From assembly GCA_016188425.1 (NCBI GenBank), contig JACPHX010000003.1:18606-82605 (forward strand): 64,000 nt of DNA. Reading direction: 5' to 3'. The DNA is from Candidatus Uhrbacteria bacterium. GTDB lineage: Bacteria; Patescibacteriota; Patescibacteriia; UBA9934; GWF2-40-263. This document shows positions 2,073 to 23,927 of the stretch, piece by piece. Position 1 is the stretch's first letter, and each line of letters opens with the position of its first letter. Made by a program: the position numbers and the translations under genes. A model generated the notes under the pieces. That model worked only from the letters and a program-made list of their open reading frames with translations, searched no databases and was not told the DNA's origin.

Positions 2073-3344
2073 TTACCGTTCCTGTTTCGCCATCCTCCAC
2101 CCCATCGCCAGCACAAACCCCGTCAGCATCAGGCCTGGCTCCAAACTCCACAGGTAATGGTCGAACATCCCCAGCACAAACCAAAGCGACATCAGTGAAA
2201 GCGCGAACATGCCGCCGGACCAGGCGCGGTGACCCCAGAGGATATAAACGTAGCGGAAGAGCACCCATCCGAAAACCAACATTCCAATCACTCCAACTTC
2301 CGTCACCAACAAAACGAACGTGTTATGGATCGGCTGGTAGGCCCACGAGGGAGAATCTGGATGCGCCTGCGCGAGAATCAATGTATAGCCGCCCACACCA
2401 ACCCCCGTCCACGGCGCCGCGTACCACACGTCGTCCCACGCCGACCATTGGCCGAGCCGCTCTGCGAGGGAGTTCGCTTCCAGAGGAAGAGAGATGTTCA
2501 CGCGCGACACGATTGGCTTGAAAAAAAGGATGGCGGTGGCCGCCGTGACGCAAAGCAAGAAAACGATGGCGGGGATCGCGGTATGCGGCGGCGTCCTTCG
2601 TTCCCAAAGCATCAACAAAACAAAGACTATGACGCCAACCAAAAGGGCCACCCAGGAGCTACGAGAGAAAGTCAGAATCAACCCGCTGCCCACCGCGAGT
2701 GAACCCACCGCCAAAAATGGATCCTGCCAGGAACGACGATGAAAGAGGGCGATCAATGACAGAAAACCAACCGCCAAAAATCCGCCGAAAATATTCGGGT
2801 GCGGCAAGGGCCCATAGGCACGCAAGAGCCGGAACCCGTCTTCGAGTTGCACCACGGCGTCGCCAGGAACCGCGGCGGCATGTGAGGCGAGCCCAAACAG
2901 AGAGGAGGCCGGGCTTTCTCCCATAAGCAACTGCCACCACCCAAGGAGCACCGCCGGGATAAGGCCGCTCACAAAAGATTTGAGTAGGTGTGGCGAACGG
3001 ATCCTCGCATCAAGCAACAGCACGATGAAACCGGAGGCAAAGAGCAGATGCCCCCAGGAGGCGACCGTCAGCGTGGGGTCTGCAGAGCGGATCAGGCCAA
3101 GGCCAGGGAGAAGAAGCAATAACCATGGGTGAAAAAAACGACGGGTTGGTTCTTGGTTCGTAGGGCGTCCCGCGAGCATGCGAAGGCCCAGAGCGAGCAT
3201 GATCAGTATCTCGACGGCATAGAGGCTCAATTGCCCATATTCCCACCCCTCCCCGCTTGGGAGCGTCCGCCTTTCAAAAATCCATCGGGTCTGCCAGGGC
3301 AACAAAAAAACGGCGAGCAGGGTGGCCCATCGGAACAATCGCAC
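2073..3344 (-). CDS. Polytopic integral membrane protein, possibly O-antigen ligase/polymerase-like. Start uncertain.
   Basis: Long ORF with many hydrophobic helices. The first ~90 codons of the 516-aa track ORF are Arg-rich and overlap the neighbouring gene. An alternative GTG at 3344 or TTG at 3338 precedes the first TM helix (LFRWATLLAVFLLPW). Confidence 0.45.
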   Translation of the reverse strand: MRLFRWATLLAVFLLPWQTRWIFERRTLPSGEGWEYGQLSLYAVEILIMLALGLRMLAGRPTNQEPTRRFFHPWLLLLLPGLGLIRSADPTLTVASWGHLLFASGFIVLLLDARIRSPHLLKSFVSGLIPAVLLGWWQLLMGESPASSLFGLASHAAAVPGDAVVQLEDGFRLLRAYGPLPHPNIFGGFLAVGFLSLIALFHRRSWQDPFLAVGSLAVGSGLILTFSRSSWVALLVGVIVFVLLMLWERRTPPHTAIPAIVFLLCVTAATAILFFKPIVSRVNISLPLEANSLAERLGQWSAWDDVWYAAPWTGVGVGGYTLILAQAHPDSPSWAYQPIHNTFVLLVTEVGVIGMLVFGWVLFRYVYILWGHRAWSGGMFALSLMSLWFVLGMFDHYLWSLEPGLMLTGFVLAMGWRMAKQER

Positions 3345-5044: not shown

Positions 5045-6349
5045 CTATTCGGTTGGTTCAGGAGCAAATTCCGACGCCGCCGGCTGTCCCTCTTCTTCTG
5101 TCCCCTCTCTTGTTTTATCCTCCCCCTGCGCCCCTTGGACCTCCTGCGCCTCCTCCTGTGCCACCCCCTCTGCTTCCACCGGTTTGGACTCGATGATGTT
5201 GATCTTCCACCCCGTCAGTTTCGCCGCGAGACGCACGTTCTGCCCGCCTTTGCCGATCGCCAAGGAAAGTTGTTCCTTTGGAACAATGACCGTGGCTGCG
5301 CGCGTCGCTTCATCTAGCTCGACCCGCTCAATTTTTGCAGGAGAAAGGGAGTTCGTGATGAACGCCACTTGGTTCTCGTTCCATTCGATAATATCGATCT
5401 TTTCTCCAGAGAGCTCATGGATGATGGTTTGGATACGCGTGCCGCGCTGGCCGATGCAGGCGCCAATCGGATCGATCTGTTCATCGTCGGTCCAGACGGC
5501 GATTTTGGAACGTGACCCGGCTTCGCGCGCGAGTTCCTTTATTTTGACGACGCCTTCCCCTATTTCCGGAATCTCGACTTCAAACAACTTCCGTACTAAC
5601 CCTTCCGCGGTACGCGAAAGTAAAATCTCTGGTCCGCGATTGGTAAGCCCCACCTGGCGGACAAACACCTTGAGACGCGCACCGGGAAGATATTTCTCGG
5701 AAGGGACTTGGTCTTCTGGCCGCATGACGCCGGCCGTGCGGCCAATATCGACAAGGACGATTCGGCCCTCGCGGCGCTGGACTGTGCCATGGATCAGCTC
5801 GCCTTCGTGGTCTTTATACTCGTTGAAAATAATCTCGCGTTCCGCCTCGCGCAATTTCTGCGTGATCACCTGCTTGGCCGTCATGGCAGCCATGCGTCCG
5901 AACTCGCCCGGCACCGGCATTTCCATGCGCAAAATGTCGCCAACCTTCGCCTCGCCATCCACCGACCGTGCCTCTTTGAGCATGATGTCGGTCTTCTGGT
6001 TGAACGTGGGCAAATCGTCGTCTGCCATCGTCCAAGAGGAAATATCCTCCCCTTTCGCGCGCGCCTGTTCCATCTGTTGCGTAAAGGCAAGCGCCCGCTG
6101 TGCCCGCGTGGCCTCTGCTTCCTCCAGGACCTTCGGATCAATATTCGCCACGACGGTTTTTACATCAAAGACGCGGACGCGACCGCTCGACGGATCAAAC
6201 TTCGCTTCGATGTTCTGCATCTTGTCGCCAAAATCCTTGCGATATGCGGCGGCGAGCGCGGCTTCGATCGCATCAATGACAGACTCGTAGGCAAGGCCCT
6301 TTTCGTCGCAAATCTGTCGAATGGCTTGTTCAATGGGAGACGTAGACAT
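5045..6349 (-). CDS. nusA: Transcription termination/antitermination factor NusA
   Basis: NusA N-terminal domain, S1 and KH domains are recognisable (e.g. GACIGQRGTRIQTI, LAIGKGGQNVRLAAKLTGWKINI) and the C-terminus is acidic. I chose the start at Met12 (MSTSPIEQAIRQI); Met8 at 6361 is also possible. Confidence 0.85.
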   Translation of the reverse strand: MSTSPIEQAIRQICDEKGLAYESVIDAIEAALAAAYRKDFGDKMQNIEAKFDPSSGRVRVFDVKTVVANIDPKVLEEAEATRAQRALAFTQQMEQARAKGEDISSWTMADDDLPTFNQKTDIMLKEARSVDGEAKVGDILRMEMPVPGEFGRMAAMTAKQVITQKLREAEREIIFNEYKDHEGELIHGTVQRREGRIVLVDIGRTAGVMRPEDQVPSEKYLPGARLKVFVRQVGLTNRGPEILLSRTAEGLVRKLFEVEIPEIGEGVVKIKELAREAGSRSKIAVWTDDEQIDPIGACIGQRGTRIQTIIHELSGEKIDIIEWNENQVAFITNSLSPAKIERVELDEATRAATVIVPKEQLSLAIGKGGQNVRLAAKLTGWKINIIESKPVEAEGVAQEEAQEVQGAQGEDKTREGTEEEGQPAASEFAPEPTE

Positions 6350-6446
6350 AGGGAGAAACATTACAAAACACGAAATAGACAAACGGGCAAAAAAGTACCT
6401 TTCGAAAAAATGAACTCGTCCGGTCGACGAGTTCTACCTGCATAAG

Positions 6447-6818
6447 TTACCAAGCGTCGACGCCGGCGTCAAGAGAAGAAATGTGGGTAATGATCTCCTT
6501 GGGAGGTACCCCTTCGACGAGCACGGCCTCCAGGCGGAATGCGCGGTCAGGCATATGGTGTTCGCGCAGGTACGCGTAGCCCGCTTTGAGGAGACGAAGA
6601 ACTTTCTGCCTTGTGATCGTCTCTTCCGGGTAGCCAAAACGCGTCGATTTCCGACGCGTTTTCACTTCGACAAATACAAGCTCGGTTCCTTCTTCACAAA
6701 CCAAATCGATTTCTCCCAACTGCGTGCGGTATTGCCGACAGACGACACGGTACCCGCGCGTAGCGAGCCACTCTGCCGCTCGCGCTTCGCCTGCGTCTCC
6801 CACTTCCTTGCGGTTCAT
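6447..6818 (-). CDS. YraN/UPF0102 family endonuclease
   Basis: 123 aa with GEIDLV...LVFVEVKTRR, typical of the YraN family. Confidence 0.75.
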   Translation of the reverse strand: MNRKEVGDAGEARAAEWLATRGYRVVCRQYRTQLGEIDLVCEEGTELVFVEVKTRRKSTRFGYPEETITRQKVLRLLKAGYAYLREHHMPDRAFRLEAVLVEGVPPKEIITHISSLDAGVDAW

Positions 6819-6821
6819 AGC

Positions 6822-7226
6822 TTATTCTCCCTTCGCCTGCGGAAGATATTTTTCCCGCTCGCGTCGCTCCAACACCTCGCGCGACACACCGGATGCGCGC
6901 GTACGAAAAATGACCACCAACCAAATCAATCCCCAAAGCCCGTAGATCGGATACCAGAAACGGGCACCCAGCAGACGAATCTGCTCGAAACTGAAGAAGA
7001 ACAGAATAAGACCAACAAACCCAAGCGTGAGACACCAGTTGGCAAAGTGCCTCCAACGAAAGGCGTTCTCACGTTTCGGTGAGTGGTGATTCCAAATAGT
7101 CAGACCAATTCCCGCGCTACACAAAGCCGCAAACACCACCAACACCACCCACCCGAGAAAGCCGGCAAGGTTGGGAGGATTCAAGGTGAGCCAGTAGTTC
7201 CACGAAAACAAAGCGGAGAAATCCAT
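6822..7226 (-). CDS. Hypothetical membrane protein
   Basis: Several hydrophobic helices. Start trimmed to an internal Met (MDFSALFSW) to avoid overlapping the methyltransferase. Confidence 0.4.
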   Translation of the reverse strand: MDFSALFSWNYWLTLNPPNLAGFLGWVVLVVFAALCSAGIGLTIWNHHSPKRENAFRWRHFANWCLTLGFVGLILFFFSFEQIRLLGARFWYPIYGLWGLIWLVVIFRTRASGVSREVLERREREKYLPQAKGE

Positions 7227-7260
7227 AGGGTTACGATAGTACAAAACCCGCGTCTGGCCG

Positions 7261-7812
7261 TCAAAAAACTCTCTCGAATAGAAAGGCCTCATGGTACCGA
7301 CCCGCCGGCAACACTCCAACCAATTCAAATCCCCTATCCCCCAAACCTTCCAAGCCCTTCCTGGCCCTTTCCAGTCCTTGCATCATCATTGCCCTCCCCC
7401 GTGGATTCCACTCCACGACAAGGAGCTTCCCCCTTGCCCCAAGAAGACGGCGCCATTCGGAAAACGCCTGCTGGGGCTGCGACAAGCCGTCCATAATATG
7501 TACGACGCTGATGACATCCGCCGTTCCATCGGCGATAGGCACCCCGCCGAGGCGCTCGGCATCGCCACGGACGACCCGGACATTCGATTGATTCCTCCGA
7601 CAAATTTCCCGATGCAAATGTTCAAGCGGACGCAAATCCACCTCAACCCCGCAGCACCATCCTTCCTCCCCGCAGAGGTGCGCCGCAGGGAACAAAAAAT
7701 GCCCCGTCCCTCCGCAGCCCAAATCCACATAACGGGAACCAAGCCCCACCCCTGCCATGCGCAGAAGCGGATACGGATCAAGATTGGCGCGTCCTCGGGT
7801 CAAGGCAAACAT
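7261..7812 (-). CDS. Class I SAM-dependent methyltransferase
   Basis: Motif I VDLGCGGTGHF, followed by an acidic motif II region. Confidence 0.7.
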   Translation of the reverse strand: MFALTRGRANLDPYPLLRMAGVGLGSRYVDLGCGGTGHFLFPAAHLCGEEGWCCGVEVDLRPLEHLHREICRRNQSNVRVVRGDAERLGGVPIADGTADVISVVHIMDGLSQPQQAFSEWRRLLGARGKLLVVEWNPRGRAMMMQGLERARKGLEGLGDRGFELVGVLPAGRYHEAFLFERVF

Positions 7813-8200: not shown

Positions 8201-8286
8201 GCGGACGTGGCGAAATGGTAGACGCACTAGCTTGAGGGGCTAGCGGGAGCAATCCCATGAGAGTTCGAGTCTCTCCGTCCGCACCA
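8201..8286 (+). tRNA. tRNA-Leu (anticodon GAG), with CCA encoded
   Basis: Cloverleaf read by hand: acceptor GCGGACG/CGTCCGC, D arm TGGCGAAATGGTAGACGC, anticodon stem CTAGC/GCTAG with loop TTGAGGG, long variable arm, T loop TTCGAGT, discriminator A then CCA. Confidence 0.8.
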
Positions 8287-8613
8287 CAAGAGACGCTGCG
8301 ATTTTTTGGCTAAGATGTCGAAGGACTTCTTGGCCGAAATGAGCAGCGTTTTTTGTTGAAGTTCAAGGTTTGAGAACACCGTTTCGGCGATTGAACGTCG
8401 AACGTGTCCGTCGCCTTCCTCGAAGCGAGAAGCTGCGGTTTTCCCAAAGGTAATAGCTTCGAGAAGAGGTTTGAGAAGAACGGACTTGTCGTGCATCCGC
8501 TCTTGTTTCTGATGGAGCTCGGTGCGTTCGAGCACGAGTTTTTCGCGGTCAGCCTTGAGCTCGTCGGCCGTGATCGCTCCGTCGGCACACAGGTCGCGCA
8601 GCCGCGTGATCCT
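8227..8613 (-). pseudogene. C-terminal remnant of a large serine recombinase (integrase). It overlaps the tRNA-Leu 3' end and is truncated by IS256.
   Basis: ADGAITADELKADREKL...VFSNLELQQKTLLISAKK aligns with the C-terminus of the intact 547-aa recombinase at 14037-15680 (LDGYFTSDEGLSRKNEL...LSSNRELKGQTLLIQA). The N-terminal catalytic part is missing; the reading frame runs into the IS. Confidence 0.5.
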
Positions 8614-9988
8614 GGGTCTGTACAATATTCTGTGTAAATGGCATTTAGATGGATAGCTAACCAATCCTCTATGTCAGACCAATCTATGTCTTCCATGCCA
8701 TCCGTCCCAGCTGTTTCCTCTCGTCCTCCCCGCCGCGTGAGTGCGGAAGAATTCGATGCCCGCATGAAAGGAATCAAGTCCGTGGAAGACGCCCATGCCT
8801 TCATCCGGGAAATGATGGGTTCCACTCTGCAAACCGTGCTTGAAGCGGAACTCACGGATCATCTGGGATACGACAAGCATGACAATGAAGGAGACGGGTC
8901 TGGAAACAGCCGAAATGGGTATTCGGAAAAAACCGTGGAGACGTCTTTGGGAAAGACGGTGCTTGCCGTTCCCCGGGATCGGGAAGGGATGTTCGAGCCC
9001 AGGATCATCCCCAAACACGGACGCAAGACTACCAATGAATTGGAGGACAAGATCATTGCCATGTATGCCCAGGGGATGACCACAAGGGATATCCATGCCC
9101 ACATGCAGGACATTTACGGAGTCGATGTTTCTGCCACCATGGTCAGTACCATCACCGACAAGCTGGAACCCCAGATCCGAGAATGGAGGGAGAGGCCGCT
9201 GGAAACGATGTACCCCATCGTATACCTGGATGGCATCCGGTTTAAGGTGAGGGACAATGGCAAAATGATGAACAAATGCGCGTATTCCGTTCTTGCCTTG
9301 AATATCGAGGGAAAGAAGGAAGTCTTGGGCCTCTGGGTCGCTCAAAGCGAAGGAGCCAAGTTCTGGATGGAGGTATTGAATGAGCTCAAAAACAGAGGAG
9401 TGGAGGATATCCTCATCTGTTGTGTGGATGGTCTCACGGGATTCAACGAAGCCATCGAAGCCGTGTTTCCACAGACAAATATCCAACGCTGCATCGTCCA
9501 TCTCATACGCTCTTCCCTGAAGTTCATCCCCCACAAGCTCAAGGACAAATTCTGCCATGATCTGAAACAGATCTATACGGCTCCCACGGAGGAAGCGGGA
9601 CTGCAGGCGCTCATGGATATGAAGGAGGCATGGAAGGACCACCCTGCTGCGCTGCAGGCATGGGAACAATTCTGGCCGGATCTCTCCACCTTTTTCATCT
9701 TTTCCCAGCCGGTCAGGCGTATCATCTATACGACAAACGCCGTGGAATCCCTCCATCGTCAATTACGCAAAATCACAAAAACAACCTCGACGTTTCCCCA
9801 CGATGAGGATCTCATCAAACTGCTGTACCTGGGGGTCTGGAATATTTCAAAACGCTGGACGGCTCCCATCACGAGGTGGAGCGAAATCCTGGCCCAGCTC
9901 ACCATCCAATTTCCAAACAGAATCAATTTCTCCTAACCCATTTCAAAACCTATCCACAGGCTATTTACACAAAAGATTTGACACACCC
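8614..9988 (+). mobile_element. IS256-family insertion sequence, about 1.37 kb
   Basis: A single Mutator-type transposase ORF. Imperfect terminal IRs with the IS256-like core TGTGTAAAT lie 17 nt from each end: 8614-8639 GGGTCTGTACAATATTCTGTGTAAAT and the reverse complement of 9963-9988. I saw no clear 8-bp target duplication. Confidence 0.8.
8638..9936 (+). CDS. IS256-family (Mutator-like) transposase
   Basis: 432 aa with typical IS256 Tnp blocks: YPIVYLDGIRFKVR, CCVDGLTGF, IQRCIVHLIRSSLKF, YTTNAVESLHRQLRK. Confidence 0.9.
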   Translation: MAFRWIANQSSMSDQSMSSMPSVPAVSSRPPRRVSAEEFDARMKGIKSVEDAHAFIREMMGSTLQTVLEAELTDHLGYDKHDNEGDGSGNSRNGYSEKTVETSLGKTVLAVPRDREGMFEPRIIPKHGRKTTNELEDKIIAMYAQGMTTRDIHAHMQDIYGVDVSATMVSTITDKLEPQIREWRERPLETMYPIVYLDGIRFKVRDNGKMMNKCAYSVLALNIEGKKEVLGLWVAQSEGAKFWMEVLNELKNRGVEDILICCVDGLTGFNEAIEAVFPQTNIQRCIVHLIRSSLKFIPHKLKDKFCHDLKQIYTAPTEEAGLQALMDMKEAWKDHPAALQAWEQFWPDLSTFFIFSQPVRRIIYTTNAVESLHRQLRKITKTTSTFPHDEDLIKLLYLGVWNISKRWTAPITRWSEILAQLTIQFPNRINFS

Positions 9989-10009
9989 GTCACAAACGCT
10001 TCAAACCTC

Positions 10010-10588
10010 GTGACCGGGGCTCAAGACGTAGAGCTGACCCATCGCGGGGTCGAGCAAGCTCGCCAGGTCGGGCGCGAGCTCGACCATGAATACCCAACGG
10101 CCTTCGCTTCGGCGCTTCGGCGGTCAAGAGACACGCTCAGACTTGCAATGGAAGCTGGAAGTGTCGTTGTCGGCAAAGTGCGTTGGGATGAGCGGCTCAA
10201 CGAACGAGGTCTCGGAAAACTTGAGCTTCAGCCCTCCCGCTTCGAACCTGCGTACGCGGCCGGAGATCTCAAGTACGCGCCCGAGGGTGGAGAGTCGTAC
10301 GAAGCGGTGGCGAGACGCACACTCTCTTTCTTGATCGATCTGACCGATCTGGTGAAAGAGTCTCCGGCGGAGACGATTCTCATATGCGGTCACATGGGAC
10401 CGCTGCGCATCCTTGTTGGGATTCTCGACGACGCGGAAGATCCAGTCGTGGTTCTGGCCCGTTCGTTCCCAAACGCGGAAATGATGCGGCTTCGACTCCA
10501 TCAAGTTTCCATACCGCCTTTCCTCGAGGACCTTGCGCGTGTCGGAAGACAAGCTCCCGTTCGCGCAGTCGCGATCGTGGCAGGTTGA
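10010..10588 (+). CDS. Histidine phosphatase superfamily-like protein, possibly degenerate. Start uncertain; IS256 lies immediately upstream.
   Basis: ELTHRGVEQARQVGREL resembles the PGM/SixA N-terminal motif but is non-canonical (THRG rather than RHG). ILICGHMGPLRIL resembles the C-terminal catalytic His region. The track ORF 9803-10588 starts inside the IS, so the true 5' end is unclear. Confidence 0.4.
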   Translation: MTGAQDVELTHRGVEQARQVGRELDHEYPTAFASALRRSRDTLRLAMEAGSVVVGKVRWDERLNERGLGKLELQPSRFEPAYAAGDLKYAPEGGESYEAVARRTLSFLIDLTDLVKESPAETILICGHMGPLRILVGILDDAEDPVVVLARSFPNAEMMRLRLHQVSIPPFLEDLARVGRQAPVRAVAIVAG

Positions 10589-10673
10589 ATCGGTACCTTT
10601 CTCCCGTTTCACCGCACTCTCCCATAATTGGAAGGCATCGACCGAGCGCTTCATCGCCTTGCGTGACATGCTC

Positions 10674-11561
10674 TCTCGATCTCCTCTCCCGCAAGAGATT
10701 GAGACGTTGGCCGCTGCGGGTTCTCTGGGTCGGATGGAAGCTTCCGACGCCTCGGATGGCGACATCATCATTGTCGTGAAGGATGGTACACCGGAGGATC
10801 GAGCTCAAGCAGTCTACGACGATGTCTGGAATCGGCTTGAGGGCGTCGAGCGTCCGAACGCAACCGGCGTGTTCTCGAACCATGCCACAGAGGGTCAGCT
10901 TCACAGTGACAGCGTTGGCGATCCACAAGAGAGCTCCAAGACTTTGGGCAAAAGACTCCTTTTGCTACTCGAGTCCCAACCGCTCTATAATGACGAAGCG
11001 TATTGGAGTCTCATCGAGCGCATCGTTGACCAGTACGCAAAGAACTACGTCGCGTTGGACTCGACGAAAGAGTGGGCATTCCTGATCAACGATTTGATCC
11101 GCTATTTTCGTTCGATCTGCGTATCTTACCAGTTCAGTTTCAACGAGCAGAAGGAGAAATGGGCCCTTCGAAACGTGAAGCTTCGACACAGCCGTCTCAT
11201 CATGTACTCTGGCCTTTTGTTTCTTCTCGGAGAAGCAAGCAAGGAGCGGAAAGACAAAGTCTCGTGGCTCAAGCGCCACCTTCGCTATACACCGCTCGAA
11301 CGCATTGCGCTCGCCTACGACGCAAATGGCGATCGGAGCTTCCACCGATTGATCGGGCTCTACGATGTCTTCCAAGCGGCCCTCAATAGCGAAGTGCGAA
11401 CGAAACTCAACGTTGAGTACGCACATCGGTACGACCACCCGGAGTTCGCGCGCCTAAAGGCGAATTCAGATGCCCTCGTCGCGGAGCTTCTGCGATTCGT
11501 GTTTGCGCGCCAAGCGAACGAAGACTGGAGCGCCCGATTCTTTGAATATCTCATTTTCTAA
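10674..11561 (+). CDS. GlnD/DUF294-like Pol-beta nucleotidyltransferase with a helical C-terminal domain
   Basis: AAGSLGRMEASDASDGDIIIV fits hG[GS]-x9-13-Dh[DE]h. The first ~47 aa of the track ORF look non-coding, so I chose the start at MLSRSPLPQEI. Confidence 0.5.
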   Translation, partial: SRSPLPQEIETLAAAGSLGRMEASDASDGDIIIVVKDGTPEDRAQAVYDDVWNRLEGVERPNATGVFSNHATEGQLHSDSVGDPQESSKTLGKRLLLLLESQPLYNDEAYWSLIERIVDQYAKNYVALDSTKEWAFLINDLIRYFRSICVSYQFSFNEQKEKWALRNVKLRHSRLIMYSGLLFLLGEASKERKDKVSWLKRHLRYTPLERIALAYDANGDRSFHRLIGLYDVFQAALNSEVRTKLNVEYAHRYDHPEFARLKANSDALVAELLRFVFARQANEDWSARFFEYLIF

Positions 11562-11572
11562 AGTTACCGTGT

Positions 11573-12118
11573 ATGCACGACACCTTCGCCCTCTTCGGGC
11601 TCGTCGATGAAAAATCTGGTCGACGGATCGACGCCGCGAGACAGCGTCTCTCTCTGAAGACCGGCAACGACCGCGCACTTCGGTTCCCGCCCCACGTCAC
11701 GATCGTCGGCCGAGTTCGCGCCGAGCGGAGACGCATGAAGGAGGTCGCCGAACCCCTCCTGCTTTCCCTCGCGAGACTGGCCGCTGAGCCGCAAGAACTG
11801 GCGCTCGGTAGCCCGAGTTTCGTTCCTCCAGATCTTCTCTGGCTACCGGTCAGTTCCAGTTCCGTGCTCAAGGGTCTTCACGAGACGGCTAAGGACCGAT
11901 TGGATCAGATAACTGAGGATCTGATGGACCCATCATTTCAGCGCACGGGCTACCAGCCACACATAACCTTGGGATGGGGAGTCACGAGCGACGCCTCGGA
12001 GCCACTACTCGACGCCTCCCTCCCTCGAGTCACGATGGTCGCATTAGCCGTCGCTCTATACCCCGAGACGTGGGAAAATTACGGAAAGGTTCGGGTATGG
12101 CGCACGGCCGAACTCTGA
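11573..12118 (+). CDS. 2H phosphoesterase (LigT/2'-5' RNA ligase-like cyclic phosphodiesterase)
   Basis: Two H-x-T-x motifs about 87 aa apart (FPPHVTIVG and QPHITLGWG) in a 181-aa protein. This is the hallmark of the 2H superfamily. Confidence 0.7.
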   Translation: MHDTFALFGLVDEKSGRRIDAARQRLSLKTGNDRALRFPPHVTIVGRVRAERRRMKEVAEPLLLSLARLAAEPQELALGSPSFVPPDLLWLPVSSSSVLKGLHETAKDRLDQITEDLMDPSFQRTGYQPHITLGWGVTSDASEPLLDASLPRVTMVALAVALYPETWENYGKVRVWRTAEL

Positions 12119-12394
12119 TGCAATCGATTGTTTGCATGTCCGATCCTGCACTTTTCGCGCATCGTCCGCCTACTCCGTCCAGTGGCGCAACGTGTACAGT
12201 TCCAGGCTGCTTCGCAATGCGACCACGCTCGATCATCGAGTTCCATGGTGGTTCGCCCTCCCCGTGTGCATGGACAATCGAAAGGCGACATGGCTTGGAG
12301 TTGCTCGCAGTGACGAGCCAGTGCGAGAGATCGTAACGCAATGGGCCTCTCGGACGATGGATAGGTAACGACCTCCCTTGCGAAAGGACCGAAG

Positions 12395-13126
12395 ATGGCC
12401 AAATCTACGATCGAATGGACGGAGTCAACCTGGAACCCCGTGACGGGGTGTACCAAGATCAGCCCCGGGTGCAAATACTGCTACGCCGAGCGAATGGCGA
12501 AGCGACTTCGAGCGATGGGTCAAAGGAATTACCGTAACGGCTTCCAACTCACCCTCCATCCGCACATGCTCGACCGACCGCTACGCTGGAGGAAGCCGCA
12601 GACGATTTTCGTGAATTCGATGAGCGACCTGTTTCACGCGGAGGTGCCAGTCGAGTACATCCAGCGTGTCTTCGACATCATGTCGCGGGCACACAGGCAC
12701 CGCTTCCAGATTCTTACCAAGCGCTCCGCGCGTCTCGCCGAGGTCAGCCCCAGCCTCCCGTGGCCGGAGAACGTGTGGATGGGCGTGAGCGTTGAAAGCG
12801 CGGCCTACAAATTCCGGAGCGACGACCTGAGAAAGTCAGAAGCCCAGACGAAATTTCTTTCGCTGGAGCCACTTCTGGGTCCGCTCCCGAATCTCGACCT
12901 TCACGAAATCGACTGGGTCATCGTCGGCGGTGAGTCAGGGCCCGGCGCAAGAGGCATCCGAGCGGACTGGGTGACCGATATTCGCGATCAGTGTCTTCGC
13001 GCGAATGTTTCATTTTTCTTCAAACAATGGGGCGGTGTGAACAAGAAGACTACCGGTCGGGCACTGGAAGGAAGGACTTGGAACGAATTGCCTCGCACCC
13101 GCCTTCTGCCCGTCATCACGTCGTAG
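12395..13126 (+). CDS. Phage Gp37/Gp68 family protein (DUF5131)
   Basis: N-terminal [20 protein letters not shown] Cys cluster and overall length match the Gp37/Gp68 family. Confidence 0.6.
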
Positions 13127-13127
13127 G

Positions 13128-13667
13128 ATGCAATCGATTGCATCTGTGTTGGAACGGTCGGAACCGATCCCGAAAGACTGGAACGAGGCAGCGCAAATGA
13201 AACCCAATATTGACGATCTTATCAAAGCTCGCGACGAGGATGAAACAGACCCTAAGAGAATTAGAGAGGAGGTCACCAGAAAATTGTACGAAGAACACCA
13301 TGATCAGTTGGGAAAAAGGATTGCCAGAGTCAAAGCATCAGATCCGGATCTCAATCAAGACGATATTGACGAAATCCGAAGCACCTTCGAAGCATCCCTT
13401 CGAAGGAAACATTCCGCGTACATAAAAGCGGAGACGCTTCGGTCTTTAGATTTACATCAAATCACCAAAACCAAGGCCGATTCGATTGGCAGAATCATCT
13501 TAGCGCTCGAAGATCTGGAATGGAGTCCTCATGATTTTTGGGAGAGGCTACGGGCATCATGGGACACGGAGCAACTCGATAGAGCCATATTTCATTTTGA
13601 GAAAACAGGAGATGTTTCGCCTTTTCGGTATCTCCGTCCACCACGATCTCTCGGTTCAACGAGATAA
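13128..13667 (+). CDS. Hypothetical protein
   Basis: 179-aa ORF starting ATGCAATCGATTGCA directly after the previous stop. Charged and helical, no recognisable motif. The region looks lower in GC than its flanks. Confidence 0.45.
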   Translation: MQSIASVLERSEPIPKDWNEAAQMKPNIDDLIKARDEDETDPKRIREEVTRKLYEEHHDQLGKRIARVKASDPDLNQDDIDEIRSTFEASLRRKHSAYIKAETLRSLDLHQITKTKADSIGRIILALEDLEWSPHDFWERLRASWDTEQLDRAIFHFEKTGDVSPFRYLRPPRSLGSTR

Positions 13668-14017: not shown

Positions 14018-14094
14018 GGACGCTTAGCTCAGCCGGTTAGAGCGACTCGTTTACACCGAGTAGGCCGCAGGTTCGAATCCTGCAGCGTCCACCA
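14018..14094 (+). tRNA. tRNA-Val (anticodon TAC), CCA encoded
   Basis: Acceptor GGACGCT/AGCGTCC, D arm GCTC-AGCCGGTTA-GAGC, anticodon stem ACTCG/CGAGT with loop TTTACAC, T loop TTCGAAT, discriminator A then CCA. Confidence 0.85.
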
Positions 14095-15680
14095 TAAAGA
14101 ACTTCTTCATTTTTGGAGGAGTTTTTTGTATTTGCGACAAGTGCTTTTTCCGCTAAAGGAAAGACTTTTCCGAGTACGTCCCCACCATTTGGCTCGTGGT
14201 TCAACAGCAACTTTTGAGCTTGAATCAAATAATTGGCTGCTTTCAATTTTTCAATCGCAGGAATGGCTTGAATTAGCAGAGTTTGACCTTTTAGCTCGCG
14301 GTTCGAACTTAAAACGTTCAATACTTTTCTTTTGACCAAAGGATTGAGTTCTTTGAATTTAAACGGAAGATAATCGAAGACCTGAATCATTTCCATGGTG
14401 AGCTTCCAGAGGACATCTTCCTTCACATCTTCCATCTCGCCAATTTGAAGCCGCAGCGCGTGACGCAGTTCGGTAAGCTCATTCTTGCGAGACAAGCCCT
14501 CGTCAGACGTGAAGTAACCGTCCAGAACGGCTTTGTTGAGTTTTTCAAGCTGTTGATCAATTTGACCGAGCTTCAAATCCAAAGCTTTGCGTTTTGCCTG
14601 ATTATCAACGCGAATCTTGGAAGATAAACGAGCAATGGCCTCTTTGGCATAAACCATGAATTCATCGGCCAGCTCGTACTTTGCCAGATACGCAATGATT
14701 TGATCCTCAATGCGATCCTCACGAATCGTTTGGCGACATTTTGGGTTATGGCACTCAAGATATGTATGGGCTTTGTGGATAGAAGAAACCAAAAAACGAC
14801 CGCACTCACACTTAATCATTTTGGCGTAAGTGAAGTCGTGCAGCACTTTATTTTTTTGAGTTCTTCCATCCAAAATTTCCTGAACCTGATCAAAGAGCTT
14901 TTTGCTGATGATGGTGTCTTGATTACCTTCGTAGAAAGTAGGCTCCGTAGCCCCCTTCTTTTTCCACCGCAACATTCCGTGATAAAAAGGATTTCGAAGC
15001 ATTATATAAAACATGCTCTGGCGAATCGGGTTGCCGCTCGTATTTGTCATGCCACGCTTTCGCATGTATTCGCACAGTGTCACCGCTGAATAGTTGCCAG
15101 TGGCAAACAGTTCGAAGCTCTCCTTCACAAAAGGGGCAACCTTCGGGTCGAGCTGTTTCTTTTTGTGATCCTCGTCAACGCCTTTAATACCGCTTCGATA
15201 ACCGATCGGTGGCGGAGCTGGAAAATATCCCCTAAGTAAACACTCTTCCATTTTTGTACTGACTTCCTCCGACAGGTTTTCCGAATACCAGACAGCCATG
15301 TTACAGAAATTGCGGAAAGCCAGACGCCCTGCGGCACGGCTCGTATCAAATTCGCCCTCGATCACGATCATCTTCTTTTTATTCTTCGTGACCATTTGAT
15401 CAAGTAATGCGAAGTCGGCGACGTTTCGAGAGCTGCGATCCAATTTATGAAAAATAACCCCTTCTATTTCAGGGGTTGAGAGACGTTCAAGCATTGCAGT
15501 GAACTGCGTACGCTTTCCTTTGAAGCCAGATTTGGCCTCGCTGTACCATTCCACGATTTCACATTCCTTGCGCTCTGCGTATTCAGTGATAATGCGTTTT
15601 TGAGCAGGTAGAGAATTGTCCATCTCGGCCTGCGCTTTTGTGGAAACGCGACAATAGGCTACATACTTCTTCATAGGCAT
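14037..15680 (-). CDS. Large serine recombinase (phage integrase)
   Basis: N-terminal resolvase domain with catalytic Ser (VAYCRVSTKAQ), a recombinase domain, a zinc-ribbon region (CECGRFLV...CHNPKC), and a coiled-coil C-terminus. The last ~57 nt overlap tRNA-Val. Confidence 0.9.
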   Translation of the reverse strand: MPMKKYVAYCRVSTKAQAEMDNSLPAQKRIITEYAERKECEIVEWYSEAKSGFKGKRTQFTAMLERLSTPEIEGVIFHKLDRSSRNVADFALLDQMVTKNKKKMIVIEGEFDTSRAAGRLAFRNFCNMAVWYSENLSEEVSTKMEECLLRGYFPAPPPIGYRSGIKGVDEDHKKKQLDPKVAPFVKESFELFATGNYSAVTLCEYMRKRGMTNTSGNPIRQSMFYIMLRNPFYHGMLRWKKKGATEPTFYEGNQDTIISKKLFDQVQEILDGRTQKNKVLHDFTYAKMIKCECGRFLVSSIHKAHTYLECHNPKCRQTIREDRIEDQIIAYLAKYELADEFMVYAKEAIARLSSKIRVDNQAKRKALDLKLGQIDQQLEKLNKAVLDGYFTSDEGLSRKNELTELRHALRLQIGEMEDVKEDVLWKLTMEMIQVFDYLPFKFKELNPLVKRKVLNVLSSNRELKGQTLLIQAIPAIEKLKAANYLIQAQKLLLNHEPNGGDVLGKVFPLAEKALVANTKNSSKNEEVLYGGRCRIRTCGLLGVNESL

Positions 15681-22574: not shown

Positions 22575-22670
22575 GCTCGGCCTATACTCAAGCAAATATC
22601 GGAACCCAGTCTTAAAGACCATTTGCCCGCAAAAACGGGCTTCGCATGGTCTTTTTTTAATTTTACCCCT

Positions 22671-23927
22671 ATGAAAATCGAACAAGTAAACATCGAACAA
22701 CTCATCTTCGCGGATTACAACCCGCGCGCCTCGACCGAAAAGGAAGAGCAAGAACTCAAGAAATCCATTGAGCGTTTTGGCTTTGTGGAGCCTGTGATCG
22801 TGAACAGCGACGCCAAAAGAAAAAACATTATCATCGGCGGACACTTCCGCGTGCGCATGGCCAAGAAAATGGGCATCAAAGAAGTGCCCGTGCATTACAT
22901 CAAAATCAGCGACATCAAAAAGGAAAAGGAACTGAATCTCCGCCTCAACAAAAACTTGGGACACTGGGACATGGATCTGCTCGCGAACTTCGACGAAGAA
23001 ACGCTTCTCGACGTGGGTTTTGATTCGGCCGAGATTGATCAGCTCTTCCTGAACCTCGATCCAGACGACAAGGACGACGAAGTGCCCGAGCTGCCAGAAA
23101 CGGCCGTCTCAAAGCTGGGTGAAATCTACCTGCTCGGCGAACACCGCCTGATGTGCGGAGACTCAACCAGCAAAGAGGATGTGGCTAAGCTCATGAACAA
23201 CCAGAAAGCCGACATGGTCTTCACCGATCCTCCCTACAACGTGAACTACAAAGGGTCGGGCGAAAAGACCAAGAACCACATCAAGAATGACAACATGAGC
23301 GACGACGCCTTCACTGACTTTCTGACCAAGTCATTTCAGAACTACCGCGAATCAATGAAGGCTGGCTCGGGTATTTATGTCTTTCACAGCTCATCAACGC
23401 AACGGCAATTCGAAGGCGCCTTGGAAAAGACGGGATTCGAAGTGAAGAGCCAACTCATCTGGAATAAGCCGTCGAGCGCGCTCGGCTGGGGCGATTACCG
23501 ATGGAAACATGAACCGTTCTTTTACGCTGGAATCAAGGGCGAAAAGATACAGTTTTACGGCGACCGCTCCCACTCGAGCGTCTGGGACTTTCAGAAATCG
23601 GAAAAGGAATTGCTCTCATGGGCTCAACGCATGAAACGTTATGAGCAGCAAGGAAAAACCACAGTATGGAGTATGTCCCGCAGTAATGTGCAGGAATACG
23701 TCCATCCAACGCAAAAGCCCGTTGAGCTCGTCTCCTACGCCATCGTAAACAGCAGCAAATCTGGAGATATCGTGCTCGACCTGTTTATGGGCTCGGGCTC
23801 GGCTTTGATTGCCTGCGAGAAAACCCACCGCGTGTCTTACGGCATGGAACTCGACCCGAAATACGTCGACGTGATCGTAAAACGCTGGGAAGACTTCACG
23901 GGCAAGAAGGCCAAAAAATCCTCCTAA
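22671..23927 (+). CDS. ParB-like nuclease domain fused to a DNA methyltransferase (beta-class N6A/N4C)
   Basis: N-terminal ParB/Srx fold (NPRASTEKEEQELKKSIERFGFVEPVIV...GGHFRVRMA). MTase motif IV DMVFTDPPYNV, then motif I VLDLFMGSGSALIA in beta-class order. Confidence 0.85.
   Translation: MKIEQVNIEQLIFADYNPRASTEKEEQELKKSIERFGFVEPVIVNSDAKRKNIIIGGHFRVRMAKKMGIKEVPVHYIKISDIKKEKELNLRLNKNLGHWDMDLLANFDEETLLDVGFDSAEIDQLFLNLDPDDKDDEVPELPETAVSKLGEIYLLGEHRLMCGDSTSKEDVAKLMNNQKADMVFTDPPYNVNYKGSGEKTKNHIKNDNMSDDAFTDFLTKSFQNYRESMKAGSGIYVFHSSSTQRQFEGALEKTGFEVKSQLIWNKPSSALGWGDYRWKHEPFFYAGIKGEKIQFYGDRSHSSVWDFQKSEKELLSWAQRMKRYEQQGKTTVWSMSRSNVQEYVHPTQKPVELVSYAIVNSSKSGDIVLDLFMGSGSALIACEKTHRVSYGMELDPKYVDVIVKRWEDFTGKKAKKSS

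Follow-up and report, generated by a model that had tools for sequence, protein, structure and literature searches.

The window analyzed here is a 64,000-nt stretch of a Candidatus Uhrbacteria genome (contig JACPHX010000003.1 of assembly GCA_016188425.1), and it carries, at bases 9992-12118, a copy of a cassette that moves horizontally and encodes a histidine phosphatase, a nucleotidyltransferase (NTase) and a 2H phosphoesterase, all on the + strand. The first gene, at about 9992-10588, is a 5'-truncated pseudogene of a PGAM-type histidine phosphatase (His_Phos_1, PF00300, 1.6e-21). The second and constant gene of the cassette (10533-11561) encodes a 342-aa NTase of the Pol-beta superfamily with a C-terminal helical domain. 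The accessory third gene (11573-12118) encodes the 181-aa 2H phosphoesterase (PF13563, 5.4e-11). An earlier note on this DNA had grouped the NTase and the 2H enzyme with a downstream DUF5131 protein and had proposed that the first two form a signaling or conflict module. The open reading frames (ORFs) of all three proteins are at the places it described, on the + strand, and the gap between the NTase stop and the 2H start is 11 nt, as it had stated. Its gene list lacked the histidine phosphatase, whose truncated ORF sits directly upstream and overlaps the NTase start.

The comparison set comprises 16 loci from contigs of one genome per species, 80 metagenome loci and four contigs reached via the 2H protein; 50 loci, some of which duplicate the same contig, have enough flanking sequence for their architecture to be judged. 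The constant element is the NTase, and one or two histidine-dependent phosphoesterases are nearly always coupled to it in translation: upstream a PGAM-type phosphomonoesterase, and in addition a 2H phosphodiesterase on the downstream side or a HIT hydrolase on the upstream side. The order histidine phosphatase-NTase-2H is found in 18 of the 50 flanked loci, HIT-histidine phosphatase-NTase in 14, HIT-NTase in eight and histidine phosphatase-NTase in seven. Two further loci, which are one contig seen twice, have a truncated NTase followed by 2H, and in the last one the NTase stands alone beside a transposase. The 16 genome loci come from cyanobacteria, Planctomycetota, Acidobacteriota, Desulfobacterota, Alcaligenaceae, Gemmatimonadota and Actinomycetota. 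The most constant partner of the NTase is the histidine phosphatase, which is directly upstream in 15 of these 16 loci, across at least seven phyla. A 2H gene is directly downstream of the NTase in six of the 16, so that the adjacency on which the earlier note built its proposal is conserved both here and among the flanked loci (18/50), with NTase-2H gaps of -1 to +13 nt. A HIT-like protein is encoded upstream of the phosphatase in four of the 16. The 2H and HIT genes never occur together in the 50 flanked loci, and no other gene family recurs around the cassette in the 100 loci. No description of the cassette was found in the literature searched, either as histidine phosphatase with NTase and 2H or as HIT with NTase.

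In a neighbor-joining tree of 88 NTases, the architecture follows the clade. Clade I, which includes the window copy, has histidine phosphatase-NTase-2H, its sister clade II has HIT-histidine phosphatase-NTase, clade III again has histidine phosphatase-NTase-2H, and clade IV has HIT-NTase. From this pattern, clades I-III seem to have inherited the 2H gene from their common ancestor, with HIT taking its place in clade II, and the exchange suggests that 2H and HIT have equivalent roles. The HIT partners carry HxHxH or QxHxH, and those of clade IV exceed the Pfam HIT threshold. Natural fusions of histidine phosphatase and NTase were detected twice (P0104 and L031, the latter of 579 aa). The NTase superfamily as a whole comprises 421 clusters at 50% identity (E<=1e-30). 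These data define an uncharacterized family in which an NTase strictly co-evolves with one or two histidine-dependent phosphoesterases, with a scattered distribution over at least eight phyla. Together with the fusions, the exchange of 2H for HIT between sister clades sets limits on the substrate that can be tested.

The GS-x10-DGD motif that the earlier note had read in the NTase is present as G63-S64-x10-D75-G76-D77. The residues G63, S64, D75, D77 and E133/E147 are invariant in 56 NTase sequences, which places the protein in the Pol-beta NTase superfamily. The window copy retains the motif plus all 54 invariant positions, and the motif is intact in 82 of 82 relatives, so the loss of catalytic Asp residues that the note had considered is not seen on alignment. 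The gene starts earlier than was thought. The note began it at 10674, the nearest ATG is at 10668, and an alignment with 55 homologs puts a conserved N-terminus, including the invariant W33, upstream of that ATG; the start is therefore TTG at 10533 or GTG at 10539, where it overlaps the end of the phosphatase ORF.

The AlphaFold2 model of the NTase (predicted local distance difference test score, pLDDT, 93.5) has a Pol-beta core and a helical domain of ~200 residues that is rich in invariant Arg, Lys and Tyr. In fold it comes closest to the AMPylation domain of DrrA (6yx5_B) and both halves of GlnE (1v4a, 3k7d), with template modeling (TM) scores of 0.40-0.44 and identities of 12-15%. The next matches are aminoglycoside NTases (for kanamycin, streptomycin and spectinomycin; ANT, AadA), lincosamide NTases, MNT antitoxins and Hailong HalB; no CCA, PAP or OAS/cGAS enzyme is among the ranked fold matches. 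At the level of sequence profiles, DUF294 (PF03445) matches the window NTase with an E-value of 0.001 and 19.4 bits, against a gathering cut-off of 21, and DUF294_C (PF10335) does not match it. Over the 56 family members Pfam gives weak DUF294, NTP_transf_2 and Polbeta signals, with weak DUF294/GlnD-type matches in 26. The NTase has no Pfam or NCBIfam match to a mab21/OAS or SMODS/CD-NTase domain, and none to the PF10127, PolyA_pol or CCA profiles. DUF1814/AbiEii is likewise without a match in Pfam, NCBIfam or PADLOC, which sets the NTase outside AbiE/MenT. The PADLOC cyclase profile does not match the window NTase, and one homolog has a weak 'oligonucleotide cyclase' match (7.7e-4). A sequence-profile search of the PDB with the NTase returned motif-level matches only (e.g., OAS2, E 0.0084). 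The inference of the earlier note that the NTase makes a 2'-5'-linked or cyclic nucleotide mis-assigns its class and is not supported: the protein is not OAS/cGAS/mab21-like and, because its fold matches DrrA, GlnE, ANT and MNT, nothing specific points to 2'-5' or cyclic products.

The two HxT motifs noted before in the 2H protein are present (FPPHVT and QPHITL). Their residues H41, T43, H130 and T132 are invariant in both 2H alignments, which assigns the protein to the 2H superfamily, and the motifs are found in 22 and 25 of 26 relatives, respectively. The match to PF13563 (2_5_RNA_ligase2) reaches 43.2 bits against a cut-off of 27. The AlphaFold2 model (pLDDT 93.5) is most similar to the Arabidopsis Appr>p/2',3'-cyclic phosphodiesterase (1jh6, TM 0.74), followed by Bacillus subtilis YjcG (2d4g, TM 0.69). 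Viral 2'-5' phosphodiesterases (PDEs) match at TM 0.43-0.51, and AKAP18, NS2/VP3 and the poxvirus cGAMP PDE are among the matches of lower rank. The sequence-profile search of the PDB gave one weak relevant match (YjcG, E 0.08), the rest being chance matches. LigT is a more distant match: TIGR02258 (LigT/ThpR) scores 22.9 bits against an equivalog cut-off of 65.7, and the fold of Escherichia coli LigT (TM 0.42-0.60) ranks below the plant cyclic phosphodiesterase (CPDase) and YjcG. The protein does not group with housekeeping tRNA-repair LigT, an outcome that the earlier note had regarded as damaging; it belongs to a small dedicated clade that adjoins the NTase. This clade has 29 proteins (from a profile search of 5.8 billion), at least 13 of which are on contigs equal in length to those of NTase matches. 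Three further contigs were reached via the 2H protein, and in all of them the NTase is immediately upstream: L019 and L020 have histidine phosphatase-NTase-2H, and L017/L018 has a truncated NTase and then 2H.

The nearest solved relatives of the histidine phosphatase are dPGM, CobC and PhoE-type enzymes. The family alignment shows a conserved catalytic set (R46, H47, R95, E122 and H185), and RH(G/A) is found in 49 of 55 relatives. In the window the PF00300 match begins only at profile position 12, and full-length homologs align only from their own residue 51-77 on, starting at base 9992. That base lies directly beyond the right end (9988) of an insertion sequence (IS) of the IS256/Mutator family, which occupies 8614-9988 on the + strand and consists of a transposase gene (8638-9936; PF00872, 8.3e-112) between terminal inverted repeats of 37 nt (8614-8650 and 9952-9988). 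In the family alignment the window copy begins right after RH(G/A)E, with ~50 N-terminal residues gone, and it lacks the RHG nucleophile characteristic of histidine phosphatase branch 1. Because the IS256-family element has removed the catalytic N-terminus, the first cassette gene is a pseudogene here. The window copy of the cassette is therefore damaged, its phosphatase having lost the catalytic end and its NTase and 2H genes being intact, and this loss lowers its biological weight. A search for the N-terminal fragment elsewhere in the window found none. An IS-free version of the contig was also sought, and the sole other assembly carries the same IS.

Decay of the cassette differs between genomes. 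The NTase is frameshifted or 5'-truncated and its partners are intact in L019 (3932-4997), L017/L018 (4347-4988), L064 and L088, whereas the window has lost the phosphatase. Intact copies include those of Phormidium sp. CCY1219 (L003, NZ_JAJENT010000482.1, 5229-7645) and Desulfoferrobacter suflitae (L008). One metagenome contig (L021, Ga0073934_10032095, 2099-3181) has the order histidine phosphatase-NTase-HIT with a 185-aa protein between the NTase and the HIT protein; this protein has ~3 transmembrane (TM) helices and a weak 8xMP match. It is the sole cassette with a membrane protein inside, conceivably an effector, and the sole one with HIT downstream.

The neighborhood of the cassette varies from locus to locus, and many neighborhoods contain defence or mobility genes. 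Type I restriction-modification (R-M) genes are near two loci (L019 and L105), DUF499 and a YgjP-like peptidase near L008, a NACHT protein near L004, Bub/ThiF and SNF2 genes near L017/L018, and integrases near four loci (L012, L015, L016 and L020). A set of 72 neighbors includes pAgo with its Aga partner, HmaC, a reverse transcriptase and mad3. Distant relatives on plasmids have NTase and HIT adjoining type I R-M (Mycobacterium), or NTase and an AP_endonuc_2 TIM barrel adjoining either AbiEii or SIR2 and ThiF (Sinorhizobium and Mesorhizobium). The window copy lies in an island of tRNA, IS and prophage sequences, and adjacency to a tRNA is not general for the cassette (4/44 loci). A phage origin of the NTase was considered and rejected, as no match was found in IMG/VR (pattern scan), 50,697 phage genomes, PHROGs or BFVD folds.

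Two plasmid loci stand apart. On the 4,499-bp ColE1/Rop-type E. coli plasmid NZ_CP092257.1 (L101, 211-1706), a distant NTase homolog (25% identity) is the only annotated cargo and is preceded by an unannotated 157-aa ORF without a family match, a layout that resembles a two-gene toxin-antitoxin (TA) or defence module. The Rhizobium sp. BT04 plasmid NZ_CP125653.1 (L102, 4854-6549) has an NTase and a histidine phosphatase of the same families in reversed order, surrounded by three glycosyltransferases, two MFS transporters, a HAD hydrolase and an oxidoreductase, a hint that small-molecule metabolism has co-opted one branch.

In agreement with the earlier note, the cassette matches no named defence system. 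The only PADLOC match of the NTase is to the candidate PDC-M70A and is distant: 1.7e-35 over residues 24-327 of 342 for the window protein, and 1e-33 to 1e-54 over all clades. Both are NTase-centered multigene modules in defence neighborhoods, PDC-M70 being an untested candidate. However, at 114-182 bits for a model of 355 positions the two families are judged related but distinct, and the histidine phosphatase, 2H and HIT proteins match no PDC-M70 component, with only weak ThsC-type HIT matches in PADLOC. We found no mention of PDC-M70 in the literature searched.

Other known systems resemble the cassette in part. In DrrA and GlnE, too, a helical domain comes after the NTase core, and NTases of the GlnE, GlnD and DrrA type work alongside a phosphoesterase activity dedicated to them. 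The similarity is low (TM 0.40-0.44, identity 12-15%), the cassette has no PII, glutamine synthetase (GS) or Rab-type target context, and its partners are histidine phosphatase, 2H and HIT in place of HD, PPM or a second NTase domain. The CCA-adding enzyme of E. coli with its HD phosphatase domain and LigD PE+POL can be compared, and RlaP joins them in combining an NTase with the conversion of 2',3'-cyclic or 2'/3'-phosphate ends to a hydroxyl. By contrast, the cassette NTase has no PF10127, PolyA_pol or CCA matches, the phosphoesterases are of other superfamilies and no ligase or kinase is near the cassette; none of the RtcAB, Pnkp/Hen1 or RlaP-ligase operon genes is conserved there, which argues against a known RNA repair operon. 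OAS with the 2'-5' PDEs (AKAP7, coronavirus NS2 and rotavirus VP3) and CBASS with Acb1 likewise pair a Pol-beta NTase with a 2H-fold enzyme, but the cassette NTase lacks mab21/OAS/CD-NTase features, no RNase L- or Cap-like effector is present, and the viral PDEs (TM 0.43-0.51) are further from the 2H protein than the plant CPDase and YjcG (TM 0.69-0.74) are. Finally, the eukaryotic signaling proteins UBASH3/Sts unite 2H and PGM-type histidine phosphatase domains in one polypeptide, with UBA/SH3 and no NTase. They functionally link the same two phosphoesterase superfamilies as the cassette does.

NTase-centered modules such as CBASS, AbiE/MenT, HEPN-MNT, Hailong and RlaP figure prominently in bacterial conflict and RNA repair, and to our knowledge each one characterized so far has revealed new chemistry. 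The present family is an uncharacterized variant of such conflict or repair modules. As for its function, we tentatively favor the reading that the cassette heals and then tails ribose ends, those of RNA or perhaps of a nucleotide. The 2H enzyme would open or cut a 2',3'-linked phosphate, the histidine phosphatase would take off the remaining monoester and the NTase would add one or more nucleoside monophosphates (NMPs) to the freed hydroxyl. It would probably serve in conflicts in which ribonucleases (RNases) produce ends with a cyclic phosphate. HIT, in the sister clade, would take the place of 2H and clear nucleotidylated ends in the manner of aprataxin.

We favor ribose-end processing because every characterized 2H enzyme known to us acts on a phosphate at the ribose 2'/3' position, and what a cyclic phosphodiesterase leaves is naturally passed on to a phosphomonoesterase. 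With 2H, HIT, an Endo IV-type TIM barrel and the phosphatase, the partners found across the superfamily also mirror enzymes that clean nucleic-acid ends, among which are aprataxin, Endo IV, Trl1-CPD and PNKP. The tailing step has a recent precedent in RlaP, which is a Pol-beta NTase but no CCA enzyme and extends damaged RNA 3' ends by 1-2 NMP (PMC12776372). Several points weigh against this reading. The cassette lacks an RNA-binding domain, a ligase and a kinase, so that broken RNA could not be rejoined. The nearest NTase folds are those of protein and small-molecule adenylyltransferases (DrrA, GlnE, ANT and AadA), not of CCA, PAP or TUTase enzymes, and these matches are themselves weak (TM 0.43-0.44, E about 1e-3). 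The HIT-NTase clade, which has no monoesterase, fits a linear healing pipeline poorly, and we know of no histidine phosphatase that acts on RNA ends. The association with defence islands is a raw observation, and the evidence on function comes from sequences, predicted folds and gene neighborhoods.

Some of these data are accommodated better by a writer-eraser arrangement akin to toxin-antitoxin pairs, the main rival reading, which we regard as doubtful overall. Here the NTase would nucleotidylate an essential target, either a tRNA or other RNA 3' end or a protein hydroxyl, and the histidine phosphatase, 2H and HIT enzymes would reverse the modification until infection or stress tips the balance to growth arrest. 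Erasers of this kind have precedents, as DarG reverses DarT, and GlnD-HD and SidD reverse UMPylation and AMPylation. Such an arrangement explains better than ribose-end processing does why the NTase is accompanied by at least one hydrolase in 49 of 50 loci and why its best folds are the AMPylators DrrA and GlnE, whose systems include removal activities. It is also in line with partners that are interchangeable (2H swapped for HIT between sister clades), with defence and mobility genes among the neighbors, with the distant homolog that is the sole recognizable cargo of a 4.5-kb ColE1-type plasmid of E. coli and follows a small ORF in a TA layout, and with decay that strikes the NTase in L017, L019, L064 and L088. 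On the other hand, a simple eraser model does not require the two different hydrolases of most loci, 2H chemistry needs a ribose-linked phosphate and is a misfit for Tyr/Ser-AMP, and the NTase has no similarity to the AbiEii/MenT (DUF1814) toxins. In the window, moreover, the phosphatase is destroyed and the NTase keeps its invariant residues, a hazardous state if the phosphatase were the antitoxin, although the 2H enzyme remains.

A combination of these ideas appears unlikely, namely that the cassette is a self-contained conflict system in which a GlnE/DrrA-like NTase modifies RNA 3' termini and the 2H, HIT and PGAM-type phosphatase proteins serve as interchangeable erasers or end-healers. 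The NTase would then add NMPs to a ribose hydroxyl, or would adenylylate a terminal 2'/3'-phosphate, a reaction that RtcA carries out with another fold. If true, the cassette would correspond to DarT/DarG at the level of RNA ends and give protection from phage or RNase toxins.

The model of the earlier note, in which the NTase makes a 2'-5'-linked, cyclic or other nucleotide signal and the 2H enzyme, with the histidine phosphatase or HIT, degrades it, now seems improbable. Part of it survives, since the NTase-2H linkage is conserved, not of the housekeeping kind and uncatalogued. The 2H superfamily includes 2'-5' and cyclic-nucleotide PDEs, with AKAP18, NS2/VP3 and the poxvirus cGAMP PDE among the lower-ranked folds, and HIT enzymes degrade dinucleoside polyphosphates. 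Also in keeping with a signal are the weak 'oligonucleotide cyclase' match of one homolog (7.7e-4) and a weak fold match to Hailong HalB, an NTase that makes a signal. What is missing is the rest of the circuit: in the 100 loci the cassette has no conserved companion gene for a sensor, receptor or effector, the protein with three TM helices between NTase and HIT is found in L021 only, and the NTase carries no OAS/cGAS signature and is not mab21/OAS/CD-NTase-like by Pfam, PADLOC or fold. Three degrading chemistries around one synthase, with no reader of the signal, would be an odd design. A role in small-molecule metabolism or resistance, with the NTase nucleotidylating a metabolite or antibiotic as ANT, AadA or Lnu-like enzymes do and the phosphatases processing phosphorylated intermediates, is highly unlikely, for the fold matches to kanamycin, streptomycin, spectinomycin and lincosamide NTases, the mostly small phosphoester substrates of PGAM-type phosphatases and the NTase-histidine phosphatase pair in the glycosyltransferase/MFS/HAD/oxidoreductase cluster of the Rhizobium plasmid are set against a biosynthetic context in one of more than 100 loci (the neighbors elsewhere being unrelated or of defence and mobility type), the action of all characterized 2H enzymes on ribose-linked phosphates and the lack of any transporter or regulator conserved with the cassette.

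Downstream of the cassette, the DUF5131 (Gp37/Gp68) gene (12395-13126, + strand; PF07505, 5.6e-101) is separated from the 2H gene by 276 nt, one fewer than the 277 nt given before. The three-gene cluster is correct as far as DUF5131 is present and adjacent, but this protein is no conserved partner of the NTase and 2H. Both DUF5131 and the following ORF179 (13128-13667), which begins 1 nt past the DUF5131 stop, were rejected as cassette members, as they are absent from all related loci. In PADLOC, DUF5131 matches PDC-M41B (2.9e-122) and PDC-M30B (5.7e-116); no A component of PDC-M41 or PDC-M30 was found among the four proteins scanned, which argues against membership in either. ORF179 encodes no Cys and is not the usual three-Cys partner of DUF5131; it has no Pfam, NCBIfam or PHROG match and a weak PADLOC match to 'Unk_05' (4.5e-4). 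An inverted repeat of 20 nt (18/20 complementary; 12111-12130 and 13131-13150) starts in the last 2H codons, ends in the first ORF179 codons and thus brackets the DUF5131 gene with its upstream spacer. About 0.03 such repeats are expected by chance in the 6.1-kb region, and the bracketing suggests that DUF5131 arrived as a small inserted unit.

The 'degraded tRNA-Leu island' of the earlier note is borne out, as the tRNA-Leu, a recombinase remnant and the IS256/Mutator element are all present. The left border is a tRNA-Leu(gag) on the + strand (8201-8286, detected with ARAGORN). On the - strand, a C-terminal remnant of a large serine recombinase (8227-8664) overlaps the 3' end of this tRNA and is cut by the IS. 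It aligns to residues 377-472 of an intact 547-aa serine recombinase (E 1e-7, BLASTP) encoded at 14037-15680, where the 3' end of that gene overlaps a tRNA-Val (14018-14094). We looked for att-like repeats of at least 14 nt of the tRNA-Val or tRNA-Leu and found none. The stretch from 14018 to 55000, in which nearly all large ORFs are on the + strand, has a GC content of 0.37-0.51, compared with 0.55-0.58 in the flanks, and is probably a prophage in the Candidatus Uhrbacteria genome. One of its ORFs (22575-23927, ParB/methyltransferase-like) has homologs in more than 1,100 phage genomes.

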